Source: an uncultured Candidatus Binatia bacterium
GTDB taxonomy: Bacteria > Desulfobacterota > Binatia > UBA9968 > JAJDTQ01
Reading direction: 5' to 3'
Assembly (NCBI GenBank): GCA_964291295.2
Contig: OZ219754.1
Location: 2,080,001 to 2,144,000 of the forward strand
Length of the DNA stretch: 64,000 bases
Made by a program: the position numbers and the translations under genes. Below, in pieces: positions 760 to 38,257 of the stretch. The notes beneath the pieces were generated by a model that was given only the letters and a program-made list of their open reading frames with translations, was not told the origin of the DNA and ran no database searches. Numbering within the stretch: position 1 is the first letter of the stretch; each line of letters begins with the position of its first letter.

Positions 760-1683
760 ATGGCCGACGCCTGGCTCCATCGGTTGGCGCTGACCACCGC
801 CGGAACCACCCTGTTCCTGTTGTTCGTGGGCGCCTTGGTCACGAGCAAGGGGGCGGGTCTTGCGGTGCCCGACTGGCCAACCACCTTCGGTCACAACATG
901 TTCCTGTTCCCCTGGGCCGAGATGGTGGGCGGCGTGTTCTATGAGCACAGCCACCGACTGGTGGCCTCCGGCGTCGGCGTCCTAACCCTGGTGCTGGCCG
1001 TGTGCCTGTGGCTGAGGGAACCTCGGGCGTGGGTGCGCTGGCTGGGCACCGCGGCATTGCTGCTGGTGATCGTTCAGGGGGTCGTGGGCGGCCTTCGGGT
1101 GGTGCTGTTGAAACAGGACTTCGCCATCATCCACGCGGCGCTGGCCCAGGCGTTCTTCGGCCTCACGGTGGCCATGGCCTTGTTCACCTCCCGGCCCTGG
1201 CGGGAGGCGGGAACTTCGAGGCCCTCCGGGGAGGGCCGGACGCTGTTCCAGTGGTCGTGCCTCGCCACCGTGCTGCTGATCTATCTGCAGAGCCTGCTGG
1301 GAGCTGTCATCCGCCACACCGGCACGGCCGTGGCCCTGCATGTGCTGGTGGCGCTGGTGGTGACCCTCCAGGCCGGCCTGCTGGCGGCGAGGGGGATCCG
1401 GCTGGGTGACGAAGTGCCGGTTTTCAGAACCCTTTCGGTGATTCTGGGAGTGCTTCTGGTGCTGCAGCTCGCTCTGGGCATCGGTTCCTTCGCGGCCCGC
1501 TTCCTGTCGTTCGGAGCGCTGTGGCCGCCGGGTCTCATCGTGGCCGTGACTGCGGGTCACGTGGTGACCGGCGCACTCCTGTTGGGCCTGAGCGTGGCCA
1601 TGGCCTTGTGGGCCTTTCGCCTGTTCGGCACGGGCCGGCTTCCGGTGGTAGCCGGGGCGGTTTCCCGGAGGGCTGTGGCGTGA
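760..1683 (+). CDS. ctaA: Heme A synthase (COX15/CtaA family)
   Basis: GALVTSKGAGLAVPDWP and EHSHRL motifs, multiple TM helices, cox operon context. Confidence 0.92.
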   Translation: MADAWLHRLALTTAGTTLFLLFVGALVTSKGAGLAVPDWPTTFGHNMFLFPWAEMVGGVFYEHSHRLVASGVGVLTLVLAVCLWLREPRAWVRWLGTAALLLVIVQGVVGGLRVVLLKQDFAIIHAALAQAFFGLTVAMALFTSRPWREAGTSRPSGEGRTLFQWSCLATVLLIYLQSLLGAVIRHTGTAVALHVLVALVVTLQAGLLAARGIRLGDEVPVFRTLSVILGVLLVLQLALGIGSFAARFLSFGALWPPGLIVAVTAGHVVTGALLLGLSVAMALWAFRLFGTGRLPVVAGAVSRRAVA

Positions 1684-29206: not shown

Positions 29207-29953
29207 TCACGGTTCGAAATCCTGCCGGCGTGGCGAAAGGACGCCGGCGTCTCCGAGTTCGAGGGTCCGGCCGTACAGCCCGCTCGCACGGTCGCTGAGA
29301 AGGAACGCCGCCACGGCGGCCACCTCCACGGCCGAGAGCGTTGCGGTCGGAGCAAAGCCCGCCGGCCCCGCCCCGGGGACCACGGGTCGGCGCACCGGCC
29401 CGGGCACCAGCACATTCAGGATCACGTTCTCCCGGGCCGCCTCCCCGGCGGCGGAGCGGAGCCATGCGTGCAGCGCGGCGCTGGCCACCGAATGGACGTG
29501 TCTGTCGATGCCATTGCGTTCGGTCGGGTACGGAATCATCCAGAGCACGCGGCCCCACCGCCGGCGCCGCATGCCGGGCAGGACCGTCTCCGTCGCCGCC
29601 TTGAACCGCAGGAAGCCGTTTTCGAGTTGTGAACTCCAGGAGAGCGTACGCCCGTCTTCCGGCAACACCGGCCGGGCGATCCCGAACAGGATGTCGATGG
29701 CGCCGAATTCGGCTGCGACGCGGTCCACGAGGGCGGCGGCCGATGGTTCGTCCCGCGCGTCCAGCCGGTATCCCGCCGTCCGGACGCCGCCGCCCGCCGC
29801 CGCCTCGGCCGCGACGCGGCGTGCGGCCCAGTCCTTGCGGGCGCACACGGCGACGTTGGCGCCCTCGGTCGCCAGAGTTCCAGCCACTGCCCGGCCGATG
29901 CCGCGGGAGCCGCCGAAGACCAGGGCGCTTCTGCCCTTGATGCCGAGATCCAC
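29207..29953 (-). CDS. Atypical SDR-family protein (catalytic motif degenerate)
   Basis: MDLGIKGRSALVFGGSRGIG Rossmann motif, FLLSDRAS; lacks NNAG and YxxxK. Confidence 0.8.
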   Translation of the reverse strand: MDLGIKGRSALVFGGSRGIGRAVAGTLATEGANVAVCARKDWAARRVAAEAAAGGGVRTAGYRLDARDEPSAAALVDRVAAEFGAIDILFGIARPVLPEDGRTLSWSSQLENGFLRFKAATETVLPGMRRRRWGRVLWMIPYPTERNGIDRHVHSVASAALHAWLRSAAGEAARENVILNVLVPGPVRRPVVPGAGPAGFAPTATLSAVEVAAVAAFLLSDRASGLYGRTLELGDAGVLSPRRQDFEP

Positions 29954-29958
29954 GACCG

Positions 29959-30072
29959 TCAGCAACGCGAGCGCCGCAAAGGGCCTGCCGGCGCCGCGTC
30001 TTGCGAAGCGCGGGCCATCCACCCCCGGCACGGCCCGGCCGGGAAACCGTCGCTGCACGCTGATCCATCCAT
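29959..30072 (-). CDS. Putative 37-aa Cys-containing small ORF (candidate MNIO substrate)
   Basis: GGGGAGG SD then ATG; MDGSACSDGFPAGPCRGWMARASQDAAPAGPLRRSRC*; fills the gap between the ABC stop and the SDR start. Confidence 0.3.
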   Translation of the reverse strand: MDGSACSDGFPAGPCRGWMARASQDAAPAGPLRRSRC

Positions 30073-30091
30073 GGCGCCTCCCCACCCTCCA

Positions 30092-31876
30092 TCACACCGT
30101 GAGCTTCAGGGGCCGCTCTCCGGCCAGTTCGCTCACCAGTTCCATTTCCCTGAGCACCATTTCGGCAAAGTATCCGTCCCGCCGAGCCAGTTCCGCGGGC
30201 GTGCCGTGTTCCACGATCTTCCCGTGCCGCAGACAGATGACGCGGTCCACGTGACGCAGCGCGGACAGTCGGTGTGCGATGACGATGACCGTCCGTCCCC
30301 GCGCCAGCGCGCGGATGTTCTCCTGGATCCGGGCCTCGTGCTGCTTGTCCAACGAACTCGTGGCCTCGTCCAGGATCAACAGGCTCTTCCAATGGAACAA
30401 TGCGCGGGCCAGCGCCATGCGCTGACGCTCGCCGCCCGAGAGCCGCATCCCGCGGGCGCCGATGCGGGTGGCATAGCCCTTGGGCGTCCGGGTGATGAAC
30501 TCGTGGGCGCATGCCGCCTTGGCCGCCGCCTCAACCAGGACCATCTGCTGCCGGGCCGGTCCCAGCGCGATATTGTCGGCGACGCTGCGCCGGAAGATCG
30601 GATAGTCCTGCTCCACCGCGCCGATGTGACTGCGGACCCAGGCGGGGTCCGCGGCGGTGGCATCCACGCCGTCCAGCAATACGCGGCCTTCGGACGCCAG
30701 ATAGAGTCTCTGCACCAGGCGGCCGACGGTGCTCTTGCCCGAACCCGACGGGCCCACGACGCCCAGGGTCTCACCGGGTTTCACCTCGAAGGTCACCCCG
30801 TCCAACGCCGCCCGGTCTCCGTCCGGATAGCGGAAACGCACGTCTTCAAACCGTATACCTCCCTTGAAGGGCGGCGGCCGGACGTGAGGGCGGCTCGGGT
30901 GCTCCGGGGGTTCGTCCAGTACCGTCGACAGCTCCTTCACCAGGCCCCGCAGCCGGGAAAAGTCGTAGGCGAACAGACACAGGCGCATCATCGGCTGGGA
31001 GAAACGCATGTTCACCAGATTGACGGCCACCATCTGTCCGAGGGTAAGGTGCCCGTCGAGCACCATCGATGCTCCGAACCACAGCAGACCGGCGGTGCCG
31101 AAGCGGTTCACGAACTGGTTGTACTGGGTCATGGACTCCCGCAGGTTCTGCGTATCCTCCTCGGACGACACGGCCTCGTCCACCTGCCGCACGAGGAAAG
31201 CCTCCTGGGCCTGTTCCTCGTGCATGCCCTTCACGGTTTCGATGCCGTTGATGGTGTCGAGCACGGCTTCATTGCTTTCACGGCGGCTGCCCTTGGTTTG
31301 TTGGCTCCGTCGCCGCAGGGTGGGCATCACCATGAAGGCCGGGGCGATGTACAAGGGTAGACAGGCCAGGATGATGGCGGAAAGGACAAGGCTGAAATGG
31401 AGCATCAGCGCCAGGAACACCAGCACGAACACCATGTCCACGAAGACAAACACCACCGCGTTGGTCAGGAACCGGCGCAGGTGCTGCAGTTCTTCGATGC
31501 GGGAGAGGGTCTCCACGGCCGTGTTGCGCAGGTAGAACGAGGCGGGAAGTTCCAGGGAGTGGCGGACGAGTCTTGAGAGCAGCGTGCGGTCCATGTCCCG
31601 CACCGCCCGGCGCAGCGCCTTGTGGCGGGCGTACCGGAGCACCGCCTCGAAGCCCAGGAAGAACAGCAGGCTCACGACAATGACGTCGAGGGTGGCGGTG
31701 CCGCGGTTGGCCAGGACCTTGTCGATGATGATCAGGAAGGCGAAAGGGTAGATGTAGCCCAGGAGGTTGACGAAGAAGGACGCCGCCACCAACGGCCCGA
31801 AGACGGCCTTGTGCTCAAGCAGATGGTCGGCAATGGACCGCAGCGTGAAGGATGAACCCGGCGCGCCGTCAGCCAT
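30092..31876 (-). CDS. HlyB-like type I secretion ABC exporter (TMD+NBD, no C39 domain)
   Basis: ASFFVNLL...IIDKVLANRGTATLDVI, LTLGQMVA, GPSGSGKST, LSGGERQR, LILDEATSSLD, IAHRL. Confidence 0.9.
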   Translation of the reverse strand: MADGAPGSSFTLRSIADHLLEHKAVFGPLVAASFFVNLLGYIYPFAFLIIIDKVLANRGTATLDVIVVSLLFFLGFEAVLRYARHKALRRAVRDMDRTLLSRLVRHSLELPASFYLRNTAVETLSRIEELQHLRRFLTNAVVFVFVDMVFVLVFLALMLHFSLVLSAIILACLPLYIAPAFMVMPTLRRRSQQTKGSRRESNEAVLDTINGIETVKGMHEEQAQEAFLVRQVDEAVSSEEDTQNLRESMTQYNQFVNRFGTAGLLWFGASMVLDGHLTLGQMVAVNLVNMRFSQPMMRLCLFAYDFSRLRGLVKELSTVLDEPPEHPSRPHVRPPPFKGGIRFEDVRFRYPDGDRAALDGVTFEVKPGETLGVVGPSGSGKSTVGRLVQRLYLASEGRVLLDGVDATAADPAWVRSHIGAVEQDYPIFRRSVADNIALGPARQQMVLVEAAAKAACAHEFITRTPKGYATRIGARGMRLSGGERQRMALARALFHWKSLLILDEATSSLDKQHEARIQENIRALARGRTVIVIAHRLSALRHVDRVICLRHGKIVEHGTPAELARRDGYFAEMVLREMELVSELAGERPLKLTV

Positions 31877-32654
31877 GCTTCGGGTCCCGGGAGTCGTTGC
31901 CGCCCACCAGCACGAGACCTTGAGCCGCGAGGCGCTTGACGAGCGCGGCGCGTGCGTTGTCGTCTGGTCCCGTGGCACTCGACGCCAGCGGCGACCATTG
32001 TCTGGAACATTCCAGCAGGTCGAGGGCTCCCGGCCGGAGTTCCAGCACCAGAGGCTGGCGCCTTCCGCGCGAGGCAAGGACGGCAAGCGACCCAGGCCGT
32101 TGGGACACCGGCTCGCCCGCTCGGGCGGGCTCGAACAGCGGCCGCACGTCGTACCGGCAGTGGACCAGGAGTGCGCACGGATGGGTGCGGTACCACAGGC
32201 CGGCCGACGGTTGCGGACGCGCCATCAGCGCCTTGCGTTCCATGGCCGTGGGCCGAAGGGTTCGGGCTTCCGACAGGGCCAACTCGAGGGCCGCGACGTC
32301 GGCCGCCCAGGCCGGGGTCGGCGGTTCCTGGGCGCTTCTTGCCACGAAGTGGTCATGAAAACACTTGGCGTCCGGGTAGCGTTCGTAGGTTTCGGGCGGA
32401 CAGGTGGCCGCAAAGTCGCGCAGGAGCGCCTCGAACCCGTGTCCCAGCAGGGTTGCGGTGCGCGCGAATGTCTGGCGGATGCGCTTCATGCGCTTGTTGT
32501 AGGAAAACTCCGCCTCCAGTCGCAGCCGCCGCAAGTCCATGCCCCGAAGGGCCGGTTCCAGGGCCGCGCTCTCCAGGTCGCGAGTGCCGAAGATGAAGGC
32601 ATGGCTGGTCAGATGACGCAGCAGATTCGTCTGCATGCCGATGAGTCTATCCAT
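31869..32654 (-). CDS. DUF2063-like MNIO partner / putative peptide-recognition protein
   Basis: KR..IRQTFARTATLLG..F..L..DF....PP......DA..F, ADVAALELA, HPC; 8-nt overlaps with both neighbours. Confidence 0.78.
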   Translation of the reverse strand: MDRLIGMQTNLLRHLTSHAFIFGTRDLESAALEPALRGMDLRRLRLEAEFSYNKRMKRIRQTFARTATLLGHGFEALLRDFAATCPPETYERYPDAKCFHDHFVARSAQEPPTPAWAADVAALELALSEARTLRPTAMERKALMARPQPSAGLWYRTHPCALLVHCRYDVRPLFEPARAGEPVSQRPGSLAVLASRGRRQPLVLELRPGALDLLECSRQWSPLASSATGPDDNARAALVKRLAAQGLVLVGGNDSRDPKHG

Positions 32655-33522
32655 GGTTCGCAGCCCTCTCTTTCATTCGGGTCTTCCGCACCTGCTGGCG
32701 GATGCGCGCCACGTCGGCCAGGAGCTCCTCGCCCTCCTCGACGTCGTTGTCCCGCTCCAGGATCACCGTTCCCGGACGCTGTCGGTCAAGGGCGCTTCCC
32801 AACAGGTCCAATGCCTGCTCCGGCACCGGGTGGCTGTGGCTGTCGGCGTGGAACGGCGCGTCGAGGTAGGGCCGGCGGACCAACGGCCCGCCGGCCGCGT
32901 GAATCCCGGTCACCACGCCGCCGGGGAGCTGGTCCAGGAACGCCGCCGGATCGACGCCGTGGTTCCTGGAGTTGACGAACAGGTTCTCCACGTCCAGCAA
33001 CATCTTGACGCCGGTTTCGCGGAACAGCAGGTTGAAGAACTCCGCGTCGCTCATCTCGGCGTTCGGGAAGTCGAAGACGTAGGAAATATTCTCGATGGAG
33101 AACGGCACCGGCAGGCGCGTCTGGACCCGCCGGATCTTGGGAATGAGCATGTCCGAGGCGGCGCGGGTCTTGGGTACCGGCAGCAGGTTGGCGAGGTCGA
33201 TGCCCGGTACCTTGGTCCATGCCAGGTGTTCGCTGTAGGAGGGTACCTTGAGATCGTCGATGGCCTCGGCCACGCCGTCCAGATAACGCTCGTCGAGGGG
33301 TGCGTCGGTGCCGATGGAAAGGCCCACCCCGTGCAACACCAGCGGGATCCGGTCCACCAGGTTGCGAATCGCCTTGCGCGTGTATTCGCCGCCCTTGATG
33401 TAGTGGTCCACCGTGATTTCGAGGACATCGAATCGGTGCAGATTGGCCAGCGTCCAACGGGCGATGGGAACGCGAAATCCGATGCCGACGAGAGGGAATG
33501 CTTCCTGCAGTGCCGTGTTCAT
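32647..33522 (-). CDS. DUF692 family multinuclear non-heme iron-dependent oxidase (MNIO)
   Basis: GIGFR, LHGVGLSIG, SEHL, IENI, LLDVENL, IHAAG, DSH, LERD: typical iron ligands present. Confidence 0.95.
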   Translation of the reverse strand: MNTALQEAFPLVGIGFRVPIARWTLANLHRFDVLEITVDHYIKGGEYTRKAIRNLVDRIPLVLHGVGLSIGTDAPLDERYLDGVAEAIDDLKVPSYSEHLAWTKVPGIDLANLLPVPKTRAASDMLIPKIRRVQTRLPVPFSIENISYVFDFPNAEMSDAEFFNLLFRETGVKMLLDVENLFVNSRNHGVDPAAFLDQLPGGVVTGIHAAGGPLVRRPYLDAPFHADSHSHPVPEQALDLLGSALDRQRPGTVILERDNDVEEGEELLADVARIRQQVRKTRMKERAANHG

Positions 33523-33672
33523 GCGACCTCCGGGTTCGATTCGTGAGTCACGCGCCGGTGCGCGCGGAGCGGGTGCCGGCGCACCTCGGGTGCCCGCAGG
33601 CCCCGCGCCGGCCTTGTGGAGCCGGACGCTGCCTGCAGCAATACTAATCGCTCGTTGGACGCTGAACTTTAG

Positions 33673-33709: not shown

Positions 33710-34720
33710 CTACCGCAGGTCCATGCCCACCACCTTCGCGGGGTTGCGGGTGCAGACGGTGTAGAGTTCGTCCGCGGTCAGGCCGAAGGCTTCCATGTAG
33801 CCCCGGATGAGGCGCATGGCTTCCACGGAGTCGGGGAACAGCGGCTCGCCGGCATCGCTCGACAGGGTGAAGTGCTCCACGCCCACCTCGCGGATGGTGT
33901 TGTACATGATCTGGGGATCGACGCCGAGAAGCGGCGACAGTTCGTCGAAGGTGAAGTTGAACAGCACGCCCAAGGGGGCGAGGGCCTTCATCTGCGCCAC
34001 CGACACGTCGAGAAACGGGCTGTAGGGATGGTCGATGACCAGCCGCCGGAGGCCGGCCTTGTCCGCCGCCTCGGCGATCTTGAAGATCTCCTTGTGGGTG
34101 GCGTGGCCGAAGAACAGTGTGACGTCCCGCTCCACGCACAGGCGGATGATGTCGCGCACCTCGGGCTTGAGTTCGCCCGAGTCGTCGAGATTGTAGTGTC
34201 CGTGCTCCAGGGCCTTCTCCCAGGACAGGGGGCCGATCCAGCCCTGGGCGTTCATGTCGTGCTCGATCAGCTCCCGGCGGCTGCCCACGATGTGCATCGT
34301 GTTGGCATGATTGAACACCGGCAGCCACAACGCGACGACGCCGGCGTCGATGGCCTTCTCGGCGAGCGCGGCGGACACCGGATCGTCATTCCGGCCGCAT
34401 ACGTAGCCGGCAAACAGGGTCACCGGCGCCCGGCTCTCCCGCGCGGCCCACTCGTCGAGTTGCTCCTGCAGCGCGCGGACCGCGGTTCCCGCGCTGCCGA
34501 CGATGGACTTGAACAGGATTCCCTTCATTTCGGCGCGTGATGCCTTCTTCACCAGGTCCAGAGCATCCTGTTGACCGGCGTGGGCGTGGGCGTGGATGTC
34601 GATGGCGTCCTTGACCCGGACATGCCCCGGATGGACCACTCCCGGCTTGTACTGGGTGCGCGCCGCGTAAGAGGTGACGCACCGCTCCCGGGTCGGGGTC
34701 GAGACCACATTCGCGCTCAT
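33710..34720 (-). CDS. Metal-dependent TIM-barrel protein (DUF6282/amidohydrolase-like)
   Basis: AIDIHAH, ILFKS, FFGH, LVIDHP, LSSDAG, NPAKVVG. Confidence 0.8.
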   Translation of the reverse strand: MSANVVSTPTRERCVTSYAARTQYKPGVVHPGHVRVKDAIDIHAHAHAGQQDALDLVKKASRAEMKGILFKSIVGSAGTAVRALQEQLDEWAARESRAPVTLFAGYVCGRNDDPVSAALAEKAIDAGVVALWLPVFNHANTMHIVGSRRELIEHDMNAQGWIGPLSWEKALEHGHYNLDDSGELKPEVRDIIRLCVERDVTLFFGHATHKEIFKIAEAADKAGLRRLVIDHPYSPFLDVSVAQMKALAPLGVLFNFTFDELSPLLGVDPQIMYNTIREVGVEHFTLSSDAGEPLFPDSVEAMRLIRGYMEAFGLTADELYTVCTRNPAKVVGMDLR

Positions 34721-34846
34721 CGTTCGTCTCCCTTCCGTTCGGGTCGAGGTGCCGTCTGATGTCGGGGCACAGCCCGACAGGGCTTGCCGTACACCACGAT
34801 TCCGATAGATAGTAGTCCGTCGAAACCCGAAACGAAAGAGGAGGGC

Positions 34847-35854
34847 ATGGGGCCTCTCACTCCGCTTCAGGCGTCCGTCGTGCTGGGCCTTGTGCTCGGC
34901 GCCATCTACGGTGTGCTGGCGCAGCGCAGCCGGTTCTGTCTCCGCCGCGGTCTGGTCGGAGACGGGGGCGGATGCCTGCCGGCGTTCGGCGTGTGGATCC
35001 TGGGGCTGGCCTCGGCGATTGCCGGGACCCAGGGTGCGGTGGCCGCGGGATGGCTTTCCTTCGACGCGCACCGGTTCCTCGCTCTTGACCTTCCGGTCGT
35101 TTCGGTCCTCTTGGGCGGAGCGCTGTTCGGCACCGGCATGGTGCTCAGCGGCGGCTGCGCCTCCCGCCTCACGGTTCTCGCCGGCACCGGCAACCTGCGG
35201 GCAGCTCTCGTCCTGGTGGTCTTTGCGGTCGTCGCCTACGCCGCGATGAAAGGTGTGCTGGCGCCGCTGCGCACCACACTCGGCGGGTGGACCGTTGATC
35301 CGGGAGGCAGGGTGGCGTTGACCGCCTTGCCCGGCGGCGCCGTCTGGATCTGGGGCCTGGCGCTCGCGGCCGCGGCCATGGCATGGCGCTCCGGTGCATC
35401 GCCGCGCCACCTGGTGATGGCCGCGGTGATCGGGCTTCTGGTGCCGGCGGGATGGGTCGGCACCGGCCTTGTCCTCCTGGACGATTTCGATCCGGTGCCG
35501 TTGCAGTCGCTGGGATTTACCAGGCCCATGGCCGACACCTTGTTCTGGACCATGGCGGCGACGGCCATTCCCGCGGGGTTCGGTACGGGCCTTGTGGCTG
35601 GCGTGATCGCCGGCAGCGCGGTGGCTGCGGTTTCAGCGGGCGAGTTCCGCTGGAGCAGCCTGGAAGGGCCGCGTCAGACCGGCCGCTACCTTGCGGGCGC
35701 CGCACTGATGGGAACGGGCGGTGTCCTGGCGGGTGGCTGTACGGTGGGGGCCGGATTGTCCGGGATATCGACCGGCAGCATCGCCGCGGTCCTGGCGCTG
35801 GCGGCCATGGCGGTGTCCGCAAGGGTCGTCGGAAGGCTTCTCGCGGCAGAGTGA
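34847..35854 (+). CDS. YeeE/YedE family sulfur-compound transporter
   Basis: QRSRFCL, GMVLSGGCASR, GGVLAGGCTVGAG: three conserved Cys. Confidence 0.92.
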   Translation: MGPLTPLQASVVLGLVLGAIYGVLAQRSRFCLRRGLVGDGGGCLPAFGVWILGLASAIAGTQGAVAAGWLSFDAHRFLALDLPVVSVLLGGALFGTGMVLSGGCASRLTVLAGTGNLRAALVLVVFAVVAYAAMKGVLAPLRTTLGGWTVDPGGRVALTALPGGAVWIWGLALAAAAMAWRSGASPRHLVMAAVIGLLVPAGWVGTGLVLLDDFDPVPLQSLGFTRPMADTLFWTMAATAIPAGFGTGLVAGVIAGSAVAAVSAGEFRWSSLEGPRQTGRYLAGAALMGTGGVLAGGCTVGAGLSGISTGSIAAVLALAAMAVSARVVGRLLAAE

Positions 35855-35882
35855 GCGCGGGCAGGCCCCAAGGGCCTGCCCG

Positions 35883-37169
35883 TCACCCGAACAGGTCCCG
35901 GGAAAAGCCCGAGTACCAGCCGAGCGACTCCTCGTAGGTTGCCTTGCGCGTTTCGGTGCTCTCTCCGGTCTGCGAGATGAAGCCGTCGGTCTTGGCGATC
36001 TTCTCGTCGGTGGCCCGGTAGGAGGCGCCGACCTTCACTCCGTCATCGGTTCCGATCAGCGACCAGCAGGTGTTCGAGAAACGGGCCGGAAATACTTTCG
36101 AGCCCGTCAGTGCCCCGCGTACGGCCATGGCGCACACCTTGGCCTGGCTGTTGGCGGAGAAGCCGGACTTCGGCATGTCGCCTTGCTGCGAAGCGTCGCC
36201 GAGCACATGGATGTTGTCGTCCGCCCGGCTTTGCATGGTATGCGGCACCACCGGAACCCAGCCGCCCTCGTTGGTGATCCCGGCAACCGCGGCGATACGC
36301 CCCGCCTGCTGCGCCGGAATGACGTTGCAGACGTCCACCCGGGTCACCTCGCCGTCGATCACCACCTCCATCGAGCCCGGCCGCACTTCGACCCGGTCGC
36401 CGCCGAAGTCCGGGCCGACCCGCTCGATCATGCCCGGGTAGTGGCGCTGCCAACCGTCCTCGAAGAGCGCTTGCTTGGAAAATTTCGCCTTCGGGTCGAC
36501 GATCAGGATCTTTGCCGTGGGGTTGTCCCGTTTCAGTGTGTGGGCCACCATCGAGACCCGTTCGTACGGTCCCGGCGGGCAGCGGAACGGATTCGGCGGT
36601 GCCACCATGCAGTAGATCCCGCCCTTGCGCATCGCCGCGACCTGCGCCTTGAGGAGCTGTGTTTGCGAGCCTGCCTTGTAGGCGTGGGGCATCCGGTTCT
36701 GCTGCGACAGGTCCCAGCCGCGCACCGAGTTCGGACGGAAGTCGATGCCGGGCGACAGCACCAGCCGATCGAAGGCAAGGCTGCCGCCGCCCGCCAGGCC
36801 CACCGTCCGGCGGTCGCGGTCGACGGCGACGGCCCAGTCGTGAACGACGTTGATCCCGTAGGCCGCTGCCAGGGTTCCGTAGCTGTGACCGAGGGAGGCG
36901 AAATCACGGAAGTCCCCCAGGTAGAGGTTCGAGAAGAAACATGAGTAATAGTGCCGAGCGGGTTCCACAAGAGTGACATCGATGCCCCCTTTCGAGTCCT
37001 TGGCGATGTAGCGGGCCGCGGTCGCGCCGCCGGCGCCGCCGCCGATCACCACCACCCGCGGACGGCTCTTCCCGAGGATGGGGGCTGTCCACAATGCCGT
37101 CGATGCGGCAAGCGTCGATGCCAGGAAGCGGCGGCGAGTCATGTCGCGGTTCTTGTCTTGCTGTTCCAT
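35883..37169 (-). CDS. soxF: Flavocytochrome c sulfide dehydrogenase flavoprotein subunit
   Basis: Tat signal TRRRFL, GGGAGG, CFFSN, NPFRCPPGPYER, MPKSGFSANSQAK, NTCWS. Confidence 0.93.
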   Translation of the reverse strand: MEQQDKNRDMTRRRFLASTLAASTALWTAPILGKSRPRVVVIGGGAGGATAARYIAKDSKGGIDVTLVEPARHYYSCFFSNLYLGDFRDFASLGHSYGTLAAAYGINVVHDWAVAVDRDRRTVGLAGGGSLAFDRLVLSPGIDFRPNSVRGWDLSQQNRMPHAYKAGSQTQLLKAQVAAMRKGGIYCMVAPPNPFRCPPGPYERVSMVAHTLKRDNPTAKILIVDPKAKFSKQALFEDGWQRHYPGMIERVGPDFGGDRVEVRPGSMEVVIDGEVTRVDVCNVIPAQQAGRIAAVAGITNEGGWVPVVPHTMQSRADDNIHVLGDASQQGDMPKSGFSANSQAKVCAMAVRGALTGSKVFPARFSNTCWSLIGTDDGVKVGASYRATDEKIAKTDGFISQTGESTETRKATYEESLGWYSGFSRDLFG

Positions 37170-37182
37170 GGCGGCTCCTCTT

Positions 37183-37905
37183 TCACGGACCGGTGACCGG
37201 CCCGGCGAAGTGCAGGGCGAGTGAGGCGATGTCCTCGTCGGACAAGCGTCTGGCGATGGTCTGCATGGCCTGGTGCCGCCGCTTGCCGTGCTTGTACGCT
37301 TGCAAAGTTATCACGAAGTCATGGACCGGCCAACCGATAATGGAGGGTATGCCGTCATCGGCTCCGTCGGTCCGGTGGCAGGTAGTGCATTCGGTGGCGA
37401 GATAGGCGCCGTATTCGGGATCTCCCGGGACTGCGAGAAGGCGCGAGTCGAGGCCGTATTCGGCCGCGGTCAGGGTCGGTTCCGCAGCCCGCAGTCCAGC
37501 CCGGGAGCCGGAGAGCGCGCGCAGCCACGCCACCAGGTCGGCCCGGTCCCCGGCCGCCGCCATGCCGTCATAACTCATGCGTGAGCGCGGCACCATCACC
37601 CGAGGGTTGGCCAGAAAGGCGTTCAGCGTTGCCTCGCTCCAGACCAGCCCGCCCGCCCCGGCCTTCTTCATTGCCGAGGAGTAACGGAAGTCCGCGAGCG
37701 AACCGGCGCGGCGCCCGAATACGTCGTTCAGGTGCGGCCCGATCCGGTGCTGCGCGCCCTGGCCGGCCTGATGGCAGCGTCTGCACTCCTGATAGAGGGC
37801 GTTGCCGCGTCGGGCGTCCGCGCCGTGGGCCACGGTGGCTGCGAGAACCGCAAGAAGAGCCAGCACGGGCATTGCGAAGCCCGCGGGTTTCGTGATGCCC
37901 GTCAT
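37183..37905 (-). CDS. soxE: Diheme cytochrome c (SoxE-like)
   Basis: Two CxxCH motifs (CRRCH, CTTCH), GPHL, signal peptide; directly upstream of soxF. Confidence 0.82.
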   Translation of the reverse strand: MTGITKPAGFAMPVLALLAVLAATVAHGADARRGNALYQECRRCHQAGQGAQHRIGPHLNDVFGRRAGSLADFRYSSAMKKAGAGGLVWSEATLNAFLANPRVMVPRSRMSYDGMAAAGDRADLVAWLRALSGSRAGLRAAEPTLTAAEYGLDSRLLAVPGDPEYGAYLATECTTCHRTDGADDGIPSIIGWPVHDFVITLQAYKHGKRRHQAMQTIARRLSDEDIASLALHFAGPVTGP

Positions 37906-37927
37906 CGGGCGCCGGTTACCGGGAAGG

Positions 37928-38257
37928 TCACGAGCGGACCTCGATGCGTCTGCGGATGCGGTATGTCGAGCCGTCGTCATCCGTCCATTCGAACTCCAGT
38001 TCGCCGGACTCCTGGACGGCCATCTCGAACTGGATGTAGGGATCGGCGGACACCGCCGGCTCGAGGTCCACGGCGAGGACCGTCTCGCCGTTGTAACGGG
38101 CCACGAACCGGTTGACGATCTGGCGGGGGATTCGTTTCCCGTCCCGGCCGAGCCGCAGCCCGGTGTGCATCGGGTGGGTGATTCGCGTCTTTACGGTGAA
38201 CGCGACGCCCGCGGCCACCGATCGCGGCAGCTTGATGCGCGGCTTGGGTTTCAGCAT
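37928..38257 (-). CDS. soxZ: Sulfur carrier complex protein SoxZ
   Basis: ITHPMHTGLR, IPRQIVNRF, AVSADPY, WTDDDG. Confidence 0.93.
   Translation of the reverse strand: MLKPKPRIKLPRSVAAGVAFTVKTRITHPMHTGLRLGRDGKRIPRQIVNRFVARYNGETVLAVDLEPAVSADPYIQFEMAVQESGELEFEWTDDDGSTYRIRRRIEVRS

Follow-up and report, generated by a model that had tools for sequence, protein, structure and literature searches.

The stretch of DNA analysed here (the window: 64,000 nt of contig OZ219754.1, from the 3.7-Mb genome G000 of a Candidatus Binatia bacterium) carries on its minus strand, in this order, genes for an MNIO (DUF692) enzyme, its partner protein and a HlyB-type ATP-binding cassette (ABC) exporter, followed by a 37-codon short open reading frame (sORF) and a gene for a protein resembling the short-chain dehydrogenases/reductases (SDR). 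[quoted passage not shown] The second locus lies outside the window, ~57 kb from the MNIO gene (G000:C1, ~2,167,250–2,170,691), and encodes the candidate precursor, a Cys-repeat peptide. Behind this proposal stand the genes present and their linkage, catalytic and ATPase motifs that are intact, the modelled fold of the partner, and a precursor family together with its distribution. The features of the window that enter the argument are listed below.

32647–33522, minus strand: MNIO (DUF692) enzyme, 291 aa (PF05114)
31869–32654, minus strand: MNIO partner, 261 aa, with a DUF2063-like helical domain and a RiPP recognition element (RRE)-like domain (predicted fold)
30092–31876, minus strand: HlyB-type ABC exporter, 594 aa, with transmembrane and nucleotide-binding domains and without the N-terminal C39 or C39-like (CLD) domain
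29959–30072, minus strand: 37-codon sORF inside a 140-nt spacer, probably non-coding (open frame)
29207–29953, minus strand: SDR-like protein, 248 aa, with a Rossmann motif and without the catalytic Ser/Tyr/Lys (adh_short match)
33630–33671, minus strand: promoter/operator-like motif TAAAGTTC-N14-CGAT, ~148 nt 5′ of the MNIO start codon (conservation)

A candidate Cys-repeat precursor family encoded in trans

In one related locus, L011, a complete cluster was found in the order precursor, MNIO, partner, ABC, HlyD, TauD and SDR, with flanks that differ from those of the other loci. A preliminary description of the window, made from its sequence, had noted that no precursor gene precedes the MNIO gene, and in agreement with this, when the intergenic regions of the window and of 11 related loci were read in three frames, only frames that were not conserved appeared, with no precursor-like ORF upstream of MNIO in the window or in 10 syntenic loci; a 40-codon ORF at 33519–33641 was rejected as an upstream precursor on the same ground. 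The precursor was sought in the organism's own genome by a six-frame scan for Cys-rich repeats, which returned four matches in two ORFs, one of them a Cys-Gly-repeat ORF beside hlyD and tauD (C1:2170290–2170691), 26 kb past the end of the window. Its 133-aa product contains 16 Cys. It begins with an acidic leader whose last residues are DLDLEIHG, followed by a (Cys-Gly)n/(Cys-Ser)n tract that accounts for 14 of the Cys, then by an acidic linker and finally by a Gly/Ala/Val-rich tail. By inspection, the acidic N-terminus lacks the hydrophobic h-region of a Sec signal peptide, and the leader lacks a canonical double-glycine motif. Directly 3′ of this ORF, on the same strand, lie genes for a 148-aa membrane protein, an HlyD adaptor and a TauD-family Fe/2-oxoglutarate dioxygenase (PF02668, with the HxD motif and the distal His visible). 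All genes of the L011 cluster are therefore present in the genome, divided between two loci.

A database search with this precursor identified 22 clusters of relatives. When these were aligned with the query and the L011 copies, residues W17, L19, L26, E29, H31, G32, C33, G34, C35 and G36 were invariant and a further run of Cys positions was conserved. The family shares a plan in which a leader of ~32 aa (PW.L...DLDLE[IV]HG) is followed by the Cys tract, an acidic linker and a C-terminal part. Within the tract, which contains 8–17 Cys, Cys alternates with Gly, Ser, Ala or Thr; the C-terminal part (0 to ~150 aa) is not conserved. The preliminary description had guessed at a substrate encoded in trans, which these data bear out, and at a larger protein secreted by a type I secretion system (T1SS), in whose place we found a family of leader-plus-(Cys-X)n peptides of 70–267 aa (other precursors measured had 97–217 aa and 12–17 Cys). 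At the DNA level the Cys-Gly tract is a hexanucleotide repeat, with a unit number that varies between genomes from ~3 to ~15 (L014:10500–10600; L115–L121), so that slippage could tune the length of the core. ESM Atlas returned a low-confidence model for a precursor homologue and no usable look-alike.

Several further observations concern the precursor genes and their surroundings. A second subtype, E-V-D-G-C-G-C-G-C, in which Asp replaces the otherwise invariant His, was seen in G187:C25, G097:C178 (two copies), G203:C69, G205:C86 and G081:C16; among the pattern matches described below, G081 has the Asp subtype only. At the eutA-adjacent site, a membrane protein of ~150 aa belonging to no family follows the precursor in L014 (9636–10082, minus strand), L118 (1894–2475, plus strand) and L017 (~840–1490, plus strand); the L118 copy is 39% identical to that of G000 (E 5e-26), and the L017 copy was judged by eye. 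A role in immunity or in processing is conceivable for this protein. At L014:2718–4703 (minus strand), ~5.6 kb from the precursor gene, lies the gene for a 661-aa protein that carries a TbpB-type beta-barrel domain (PF01298, 63 bits), and such a surface lipoprotein could take part in uptake. At L011:5179–7988, the complete cluster adjoins genes that to the eye resemble those of phages (a terminase-like ORF of 685 aa and another that looks like a repressor), and the cluster may have moved with a mobile element.

Two gene layouts recur in the genus. HlyD and TauD lie between ABC and SDR in the contiguous layout, seen in G073, G029, G169, G129, G181 and L011; in the split layout they lie beside eutA, away from the MNIO operon, as in G000, G065, G137, G097, G187 and G081. 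The precursor gene stands just upstream of HlyD in five split-layout genomes (G000, G065, G137, G097 and G187). In the five contiguous-layout genomes other than L011 no precursor was found within 4 kb upstream of MNIO, and each of the five has one or two precursor genes elsewhere, the distance running from 67 kb to several Mb. When 201 genomes of the class were searched with the HlyD protein at E<=1e-40, an orthologue was detected in G000 and 10 of the 11 other genomes of the genus that were sampled, and in none of the 189 remaining genomes. The partner was detected in the same 10 genomes, so that precursor, partner and HlyD occur together in 10 of 11 and none of the three was found in the eleventh. 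For the precursor, we used a DNA pattern (the degenerate code for E-[IV]-H-G-C-G-C-G-C, one mismatch allowed) with the reversed pattern as control; 49 matches were obtained in 27 of 28 genomes of the genus, with 1–3 precursor copies per genome, and the control gave none. In G089 (2.7 Mb, 98% complete), neither the precursor pattern nor a partner or HlyD match was found.

The two loci also share an upstream motif. The arrangement TAAAGTTC-N14-CGAT occurs ~130–185 nt 5′ of the MNIO start in 16 of 17 loci, and 68–99 nt upstream of the precursor gene in six of 13 cases, that of G000 included. The 8-mer has 12 copies in G000 on both strands, and the two followed by CGA[TC] at 12–15 nt are those of the MNIO operon and of the precursor (G000:C1:2170775, minus strand). 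This sharing fits with co-regulation of the two loci, which may form a small regulon. A search of the 148-nt leader against Rfam gave no match.

Relatives outside the genus point the same way. An exhaustive HMMER search was performed with the window MNIO, and 80 metagenome loci were taken (L026–L105). The closest relatives of the MNIO outside the genus, at 53–56% identity, are ~530-aa proteins from soil metagenomes, whose C-terminal half is homologous to the window partner (30–35% identity); they are natural fusions of enzyme and partner. In 14 of 24 fusion loci examined, there is an upstream ORF of 45–156 aa with a terminal His-x-(Cys-X)n, of the form His-x-Cys-Gly-Cys-Gly... or nearly so, indicating that the pairing of MNIO and substrate is older than the Binatia genus. 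A GT4-family glycosyltransferase gene (~670 aa) follows the fusion in all six long loci (e.g., L059:7465–11582 and L089:7488–11603). Relatives of ABC, HlyD, TauD or SDR were found in none of the 34 fusion loci of at least 6 kb, and the link to type I secretion is therefore specific to the Binatia genus. The preliminary description had allowed that close homologues might fall in a characterised MNIO family, which would make the window locus a relic; instead, the nearest ones outside the genus are these uncharacterised fusions with (Cys-X)n precursors of their own.

The predicted modification and export proteins

The MNIO, partner and ABC genes are joined through two 8-nt ATGGNTNA overlaps. Direct reading of the sequence gave ATGGATAG for the overlap of the MNIO stop with the partner start and ATGGCTGA for that of the partner stop with the ABC start, in agreement with the chained arrangement described earlier. 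The three genes were adjacent in this order in all 12 loci recovered via the partner (from ten Candidatus Binatia metagenome-assembled genomes, one Deltaproteobacteria bacterium and one Thermodesulfobacteriota bacterium) and in all five further loci from sister genomes, i.e., 17 of 17. Their products are 73–87% identical to the orthologues, and frame breaks were seen in none of the 12 loci.

The MNIO scores 249.2 bits on PF05114 (cut-off 25) and is the only match to this family in G000. The nearest NCBIfam models are BufB (NF050167, 203.7 bits; cut-off 310) and HvfB (NF003818, 187.8 bits; cut-off 360). In a 40-sequence alignment, H64, H99, E144, D227, H229 and E256 were invariant and D177, N180 and H208 nearly so (at least 90% conserved). 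These positions align with the ligand positions of the solved MNIOs 3BWW and TglH, and from the structures of MbnB and TglH we take them to be metal ligands, so that the iron ligands appear intact, as first described. A predicted complex of MNIO, partner and precursor residues 1–62 had a score that was not specific compared with the control, and it counts neither way.

No Pfam family was detected in the partner at E<=0.01; its match to DUF2063 (16.2 bits, E 0.013) falls below the cut-off of 27.2. An AlphaFold2 model built from 50 sequences (pLDDT 84.7) was compared with the PDB by Foldseek, and the only matches at E<=0.001 were TglI (8hi7 and 8hci; for 8hi7_A, E 1.1e-6 and TM score 0.57) and NGO1945 (3dee; E 1.1e-4, TMt 0.68). 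In PMC12452194, PME-type 2 proteins are defined by the lack of a DUF2063 Pfam signature together with structural likeness to NGO1945 or TglI, and on this definition the partner is a PME-type 2 protein. It has 86 database relatives at 49–79% identity. A flagged TGA had raised selenocysteine as a candidate in the partners of G169 and G129; this was rejected, the TGA being the normal stop of a shorter partner.

The ABC protein matches ABC_membrane and ABC_tran in Pfam, and the Walker A, signature, Walker B and H-loop motifs are visible in its translation. Its best NCBIfam model is TIGR01846 (type_I_sec_HlyB), aligned over model positions 124–691; the score (520 bits) is below the cut-off of 725 because positions 1–123, corresponding to the N-terminal C39-like part, are missing. 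Four of the 17 loci (L003, L006, L007 and L011) keep an extra N-terminal domain. In L011 this domain spans ~150 aa, scores 16 bits on PF03412 (cut-off 22) and has a gap at the position of HlyB His83, and it is therefore C39-like and not a peptidase. Among solved structures, the L011 orthologue comes closest to E. coli HlyB (7sgr, 397 bits). The C39-like domain is lost in most lineages, including that of the window, and the initial identification as a HlyB-like T1SS exporter lacking a C39 peptidase domain is in keeping with these results. The adaptor encoded in trans passes TIGR01843 (type_I_hlyD; 321 bits, cut-off 208.65), and HlyD directly follows the ABC gene in all six loci of the contiguous type, indicating a pump of the type I secretion kind. 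The tie between the MNIO–partner pair and a T1SS-type exporter was thereby strengthened, and HlyD and TolC, reported as missing from the window, are both encoded elsewhere in the same genome.

The SDR-like protein begins at 29953 (GVG/ATG-DLGIKG), not at 30085. It matches adh_short and keeps the nucleotide-binding motif GGSRGIG, and the position of the catalytic YxxxK reads H-S-V-A-S in the window; its degeneracy, already noticed, is common to all orthologues, those in contiguous clusters included. The preliminary description had placed both an sORF and an atypical SDR after the three chained genes. The SDR was upheld, and the sORF as a gene was not: it is an open frame in GC-rich DNA (64–69% GC in the window) that is poorly conserved and is absent or much shortened in L009, L012 and L013, so that nothing supports it as a gene. 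For the same reasons, and because the frame contains no Cys in L007, it was rejected as a precursor. In sister loci the frame begins at the ATGGATAG overlap, which is the site of the hlyD start in contiguous clusters. As to a possible relic of hlyD or tauD, blastn comparison of eight spacers with seven contiguous-type regions gave only short matches at chance level besides the shared gene junctions, and the interior had no significant similarity to either gene.

The flanking genes tell little about function. Most loci share a wider synteny comprising a DUF6282 amidohydrolase-like protein, a YeeE-type sulfur transporter, flavocytochrome c sulfide dehydrogenase, a PuuE-like deacetylase and a lytic transglycosylase. 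In the window, a sulfur-related set occupies 33710–37980 (DUF6282 amidohydrolase-like protein, YeeE/YedE-type transporter PF04143, flavocytochrome c sulfide dehydrogenase flavoprotein and dihaem cytochrome c); the set keeps its synteny in most loci of the split layout but is missing from L011, and hence is probably unrelated to the MNIO operon. The absence of DoxX from the locus was confirmed, the sole DoxX gene of the genome being ~700 kb distant.

Proposed pathway and competing interpretations

We postulate that both loci would be transcribed from the upstream motif observed at each of them. The partner, with its TglI/NGO1945-like fold and by the precedent of other MNIO–partner pairs, would recognise the ~32-aa leader and present the (Cys-Gly/Ser/Ala)n core to the MNIO. 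Cys oxidation in the cytoplasm would then yield a tract in which as many as ~15 heterocycles, each bearing a thiol, stand close together. BufB, HvfB and FonB form 5-thiooxazoles on Cys, with a preference for a small residue behind it, and give products that bind copper (PMC12668002 and PMC12452194); the small-residue context is described for FonB-type enzymes (PMC12668002). By analogy with these enzymes, we slightly favour 5-thiooxazole-type heterocycles as the products here. The TauD-like enzyme and the degenerate SDR-like protein may add or assist further tailoring. Finally, the ABC protein and HlyD, whose genes are linked in the contiguous layout, with one of two TolC-family proteins encoded elsewhere, would export the product across both membranes without Sec. 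As for its role, our tentative first choice, a little short of an even chance, is an extracellular metal-binding peptide, with Cu(I) foremost among the metals; a microcin-like antibacterial peptide is the second choice, and an unlikely one. A chalkophore serving a copper monooxygenase was considered and dropped: no PF02461 (AmoA/PmoA family) match was found in the genome, weak evidence since control genomes were equally silent.

Several observations weigh against this proposal. In 11 of the 12 genomes with known gene positions, L011 being the exception, no precursor is closer than 10 kb to the MNIO gene, and the enzyme–substrate link therefore rests on L011, the sister clade, co-occurrence in one genus and the motif. 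The genomes of the genus are close kin, and the co-occurrence thus amounts to a single gain or loss, or a few of them; the 28 genomes do not count as independent. The motif was clear upstream of only six of 13 precursor genes, and it was spotted by eye before being counted, which makes the count descriptive. Because the MNIO falls below the BufB and HvfB cut-offs, its predicted chemistry is an extrapolation. In the SDR-like proteins of the window and 11 orthologues, the Tyr position holds H, Y or R and Lys never occurs, and the gene follows ABC or TauD in 11 of 12 loci, L007 giving no match. On the export side, the ABC protein lacks the N-terminal domain in the window and 13 of the 17 loci, and the TolC-family candidates are two genes with paired OEP repeats (C1:1.14 and 1.19 Mb) unlinked to the system. 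Moreover, the C-terminus of the precursor, the usual site of a T1SS signal, is not conserved, and some precursors stop soon after the core. No copper or other metal-homeostasis gene was seen beside either the window locus or the locus in trans, and the metal-binding role is drawn by analogy only. The enzyme–substrate and export assignments are predictions from sequence.

The alternative that survives best keeps the same architecture and makes the product a microcin-like peptide, with a heterocycle core joined to a variable C-terminal effector, export by ABC, HlyD and TolC, and the membrane protein serving as immunity; we regard it as rather improbable. Gram-negative microcins leave the cell by a route of ABC, HlyD-family and TolC proteins, and microcin B17 is a Gly/Cys/Ser-rich precursor turned into a polyazole. 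The presence of 1–3 precursor copies with highly variable C-terminal domains follows a pattern usual for bacteriocins, and the hydrophobic Gly/Ala/Val-rich tail of the G000 precursor bears a weak, non-significant resemblance to Bacteriocin_IIc (E 0.061). The ~150-aa membrane protein is conserved after the precursor in G000, L017 and L118; however, it is not evident beside the long-form precursors L115, L116, L120 and L121 (judged from ORF lists, with no homology search) or the short-form precursors L016, L018 and L019. An exporter without an active C39 peptidase (missing in the window, sub-threshold with the His83 gap in L011) and a leader without the double-glycine motif also argue against a microcin, as does the fact that the nearest characterised MNIO products are metal chelators. 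A less probable variant is a dispersed regulon, in which 1–3 unlinked precursors per genome would be tied to the enzymes and the pump by the motif alone. Each precursor would be modular, with a constant leader, a (Cys-Gly)n tract of variable length for the MNIO to convert into heterocycles, and an exchangeable C-terminal effector. Were this true, the whole molecule would be secreted and the metal-binding tract could act as an uptake handle or a warhead for diverse cargo domains, giving a metallophore–microcin hybrid.

In another reading, an improbable one, the MNIO has nothing to do with the (Cys-X)n peptides, which would bind metals as unmodified proteins in the manner of metallothioneins, and the MNIO–partner pair acts on some other substrate, perhaps a larger T1SS protein as the preliminary description proposed. 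Metal binding by Cys-X-Cys tracts needs no modification, the precursor genes are mostly unlinked from the MNIO genes, and contact between enzyme and substrate is a prediction. Nevertheless, the L011 precursor lies directly upstream of MNIO, (Cys-X)n ORFs hold the same position in the fusion clade, presence and absence coincide across the genus, and the upstream motif is common to both loci. The conserved ~32-aa leader is a hallmark of RiPP precursors and not of metallothioneins, and neither an RTX-like nor any other large substrate candidate was seen adjoining any of the 17 loci. Least probable is that the window locus is a decaying remnant, no longer functional after the loss of its precursor, hlyD and tauD: HlyD and TauD are indeed missing between ABC and SDR, the ABC N-terminal domain is lost and the SDR is catalytically degenerate, but intact copies of the missing genes lie elsewhere in the genome, at least six genomes show the split layout with open frames, the three chained genes retain high identity without frame breaks, the MNIO ligands and ATPase motifs are intact, and the SDR degeneracy extends to the contiguous orthologues.

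Comparison with known systems

Under the proposed reading as a two-locus RiPP system, three features were not found in print: an MNIO pathway wired to an HlyB/HlyD type I secretion pump, a bare (Cys-Gly/Ser)n substrate family that, if processed like the bufferins, would carry an unusually dense run of heterocycles, and the usual separation of precursor genes from those of the enzymes. No published link of MNIOs to type I secretion, or of MNIO/DUF692 to HlyD, was found in the full-text literature (preprint supplements in bioRxiv not covered), and nothing relevant was found there on DUF692 with a Cys-Gly-repeat substrate; a split layout placing the enzyme and pump locus ~57 kb from the substrate was likewise not found described for the MNIO family. 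MNIOs are among the most actively mined RiPP enzymes, and the present system is an MNIO RiPP pathway with an unusual substrate, export route and dispersal of its genes. Since the precursors are as a rule unlinked from the enzymes, genome mining beside the enzyme gene alone misses them. The system also offers a testable set of six small genes for heterologous expression.

The bufferins, oxazolins and fontiphorin ("captophorins", with BufB, HvfB or FonB and a PME-type 1 partner of DUF2063-RRE build) share with the window system an MNIO gene followed by that of a two-domain partner, Cys-rich repeat precursors with a small residue after Cys and, probably, the conversion of Cys to 5-thiooxazole with metal binding (PMC12668002 and PMC12452194). 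They differ in that the window MNIO falls below the BufB and HvfB cut-offs and its partner below the DUF2063 threshold. Most MNIO-modified precursors bear Sec signal peptides, according to PMC12452194, whereas here the leader is, by inspection, not a Sec signal peptide, a HlyB/HlyD pump takes the place of Sec, and DoxX is lacking; furthermore, the precursors are mostly unlinked, and the core is bare (Cys-Gly/Ser)n rather than EGKCG or DUF2282.

E. coli HlyB–HlyD–TolC resembles the proposed pump in that HlyB is the best NCBIfam model for the ABC protein and the best PDB relative of its L011 orthologue, the adaptor passes TIGR01843 and the TolC-family genes are unlinked; four of 17 ABC orthologues also keep the C39-like domain without a catalytic His, as in HlyB. 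In contrast to that system, whose cargo is an RTX protein, the cargo here would be a small Cys-repeat precursor with no recognisable C-terminal signal, and the window exporter lacks the N-terminal domain. The fusion clade shares the closest MNIO relatives outside the genus, a homologous partner half and precursors ending in His-x-(Cys-X)n; it differs in the fusion itself, a leader of ~100 aa with a short C-terminal core, the GT4 gene and the absence of relatives of the ABC, HlyD, TauD and SDR genes, and no published description of such an MNIO::partner system was found.

Methanobactin is a secreted peptide. The MbnABC system resembles the one proposed here in making a Cys-derived, copper-binding peptide with an MNIO (PMC12452194), whereas MbnB is very distant from the window MNIO (38.9 bits, NCBIfam) and the two systems are unlike in partner type (MbnC), in the short precursor and in how export takes place. 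In the TglHI system (pearlin, Pseudomonas syringae), TglI is the best structural match of the partner, whereas TglH is a distant relative of the MNIO (62 bits) and the system has no T1SS. TglHI reportedly acts on one C-terminal Cys of a scaffold peptide and not on a repeat tract. PME-type 2 systems, as described in PMC12452194, share with the present one a precursor without a signal peptide. The main text of that paper mentions neither ABC, exporter, HlyD nor "type I secretion", and has "secretion" in its reference list only. Its Table 2 (Antoine et al. 2025) lists putative adjamnio-I precursors of 122–293 aa with 8–21 Cys and no signal peptide, the gene preceding those for an MNIO and a PME-type 2 partner. 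In length, Cys count and partner type these fit the precursors of the window system, as compared by description only; adjacency to the MNIO gene is, in the window-system family, seen only in L011. Adjamnio-I may belong to the same family.

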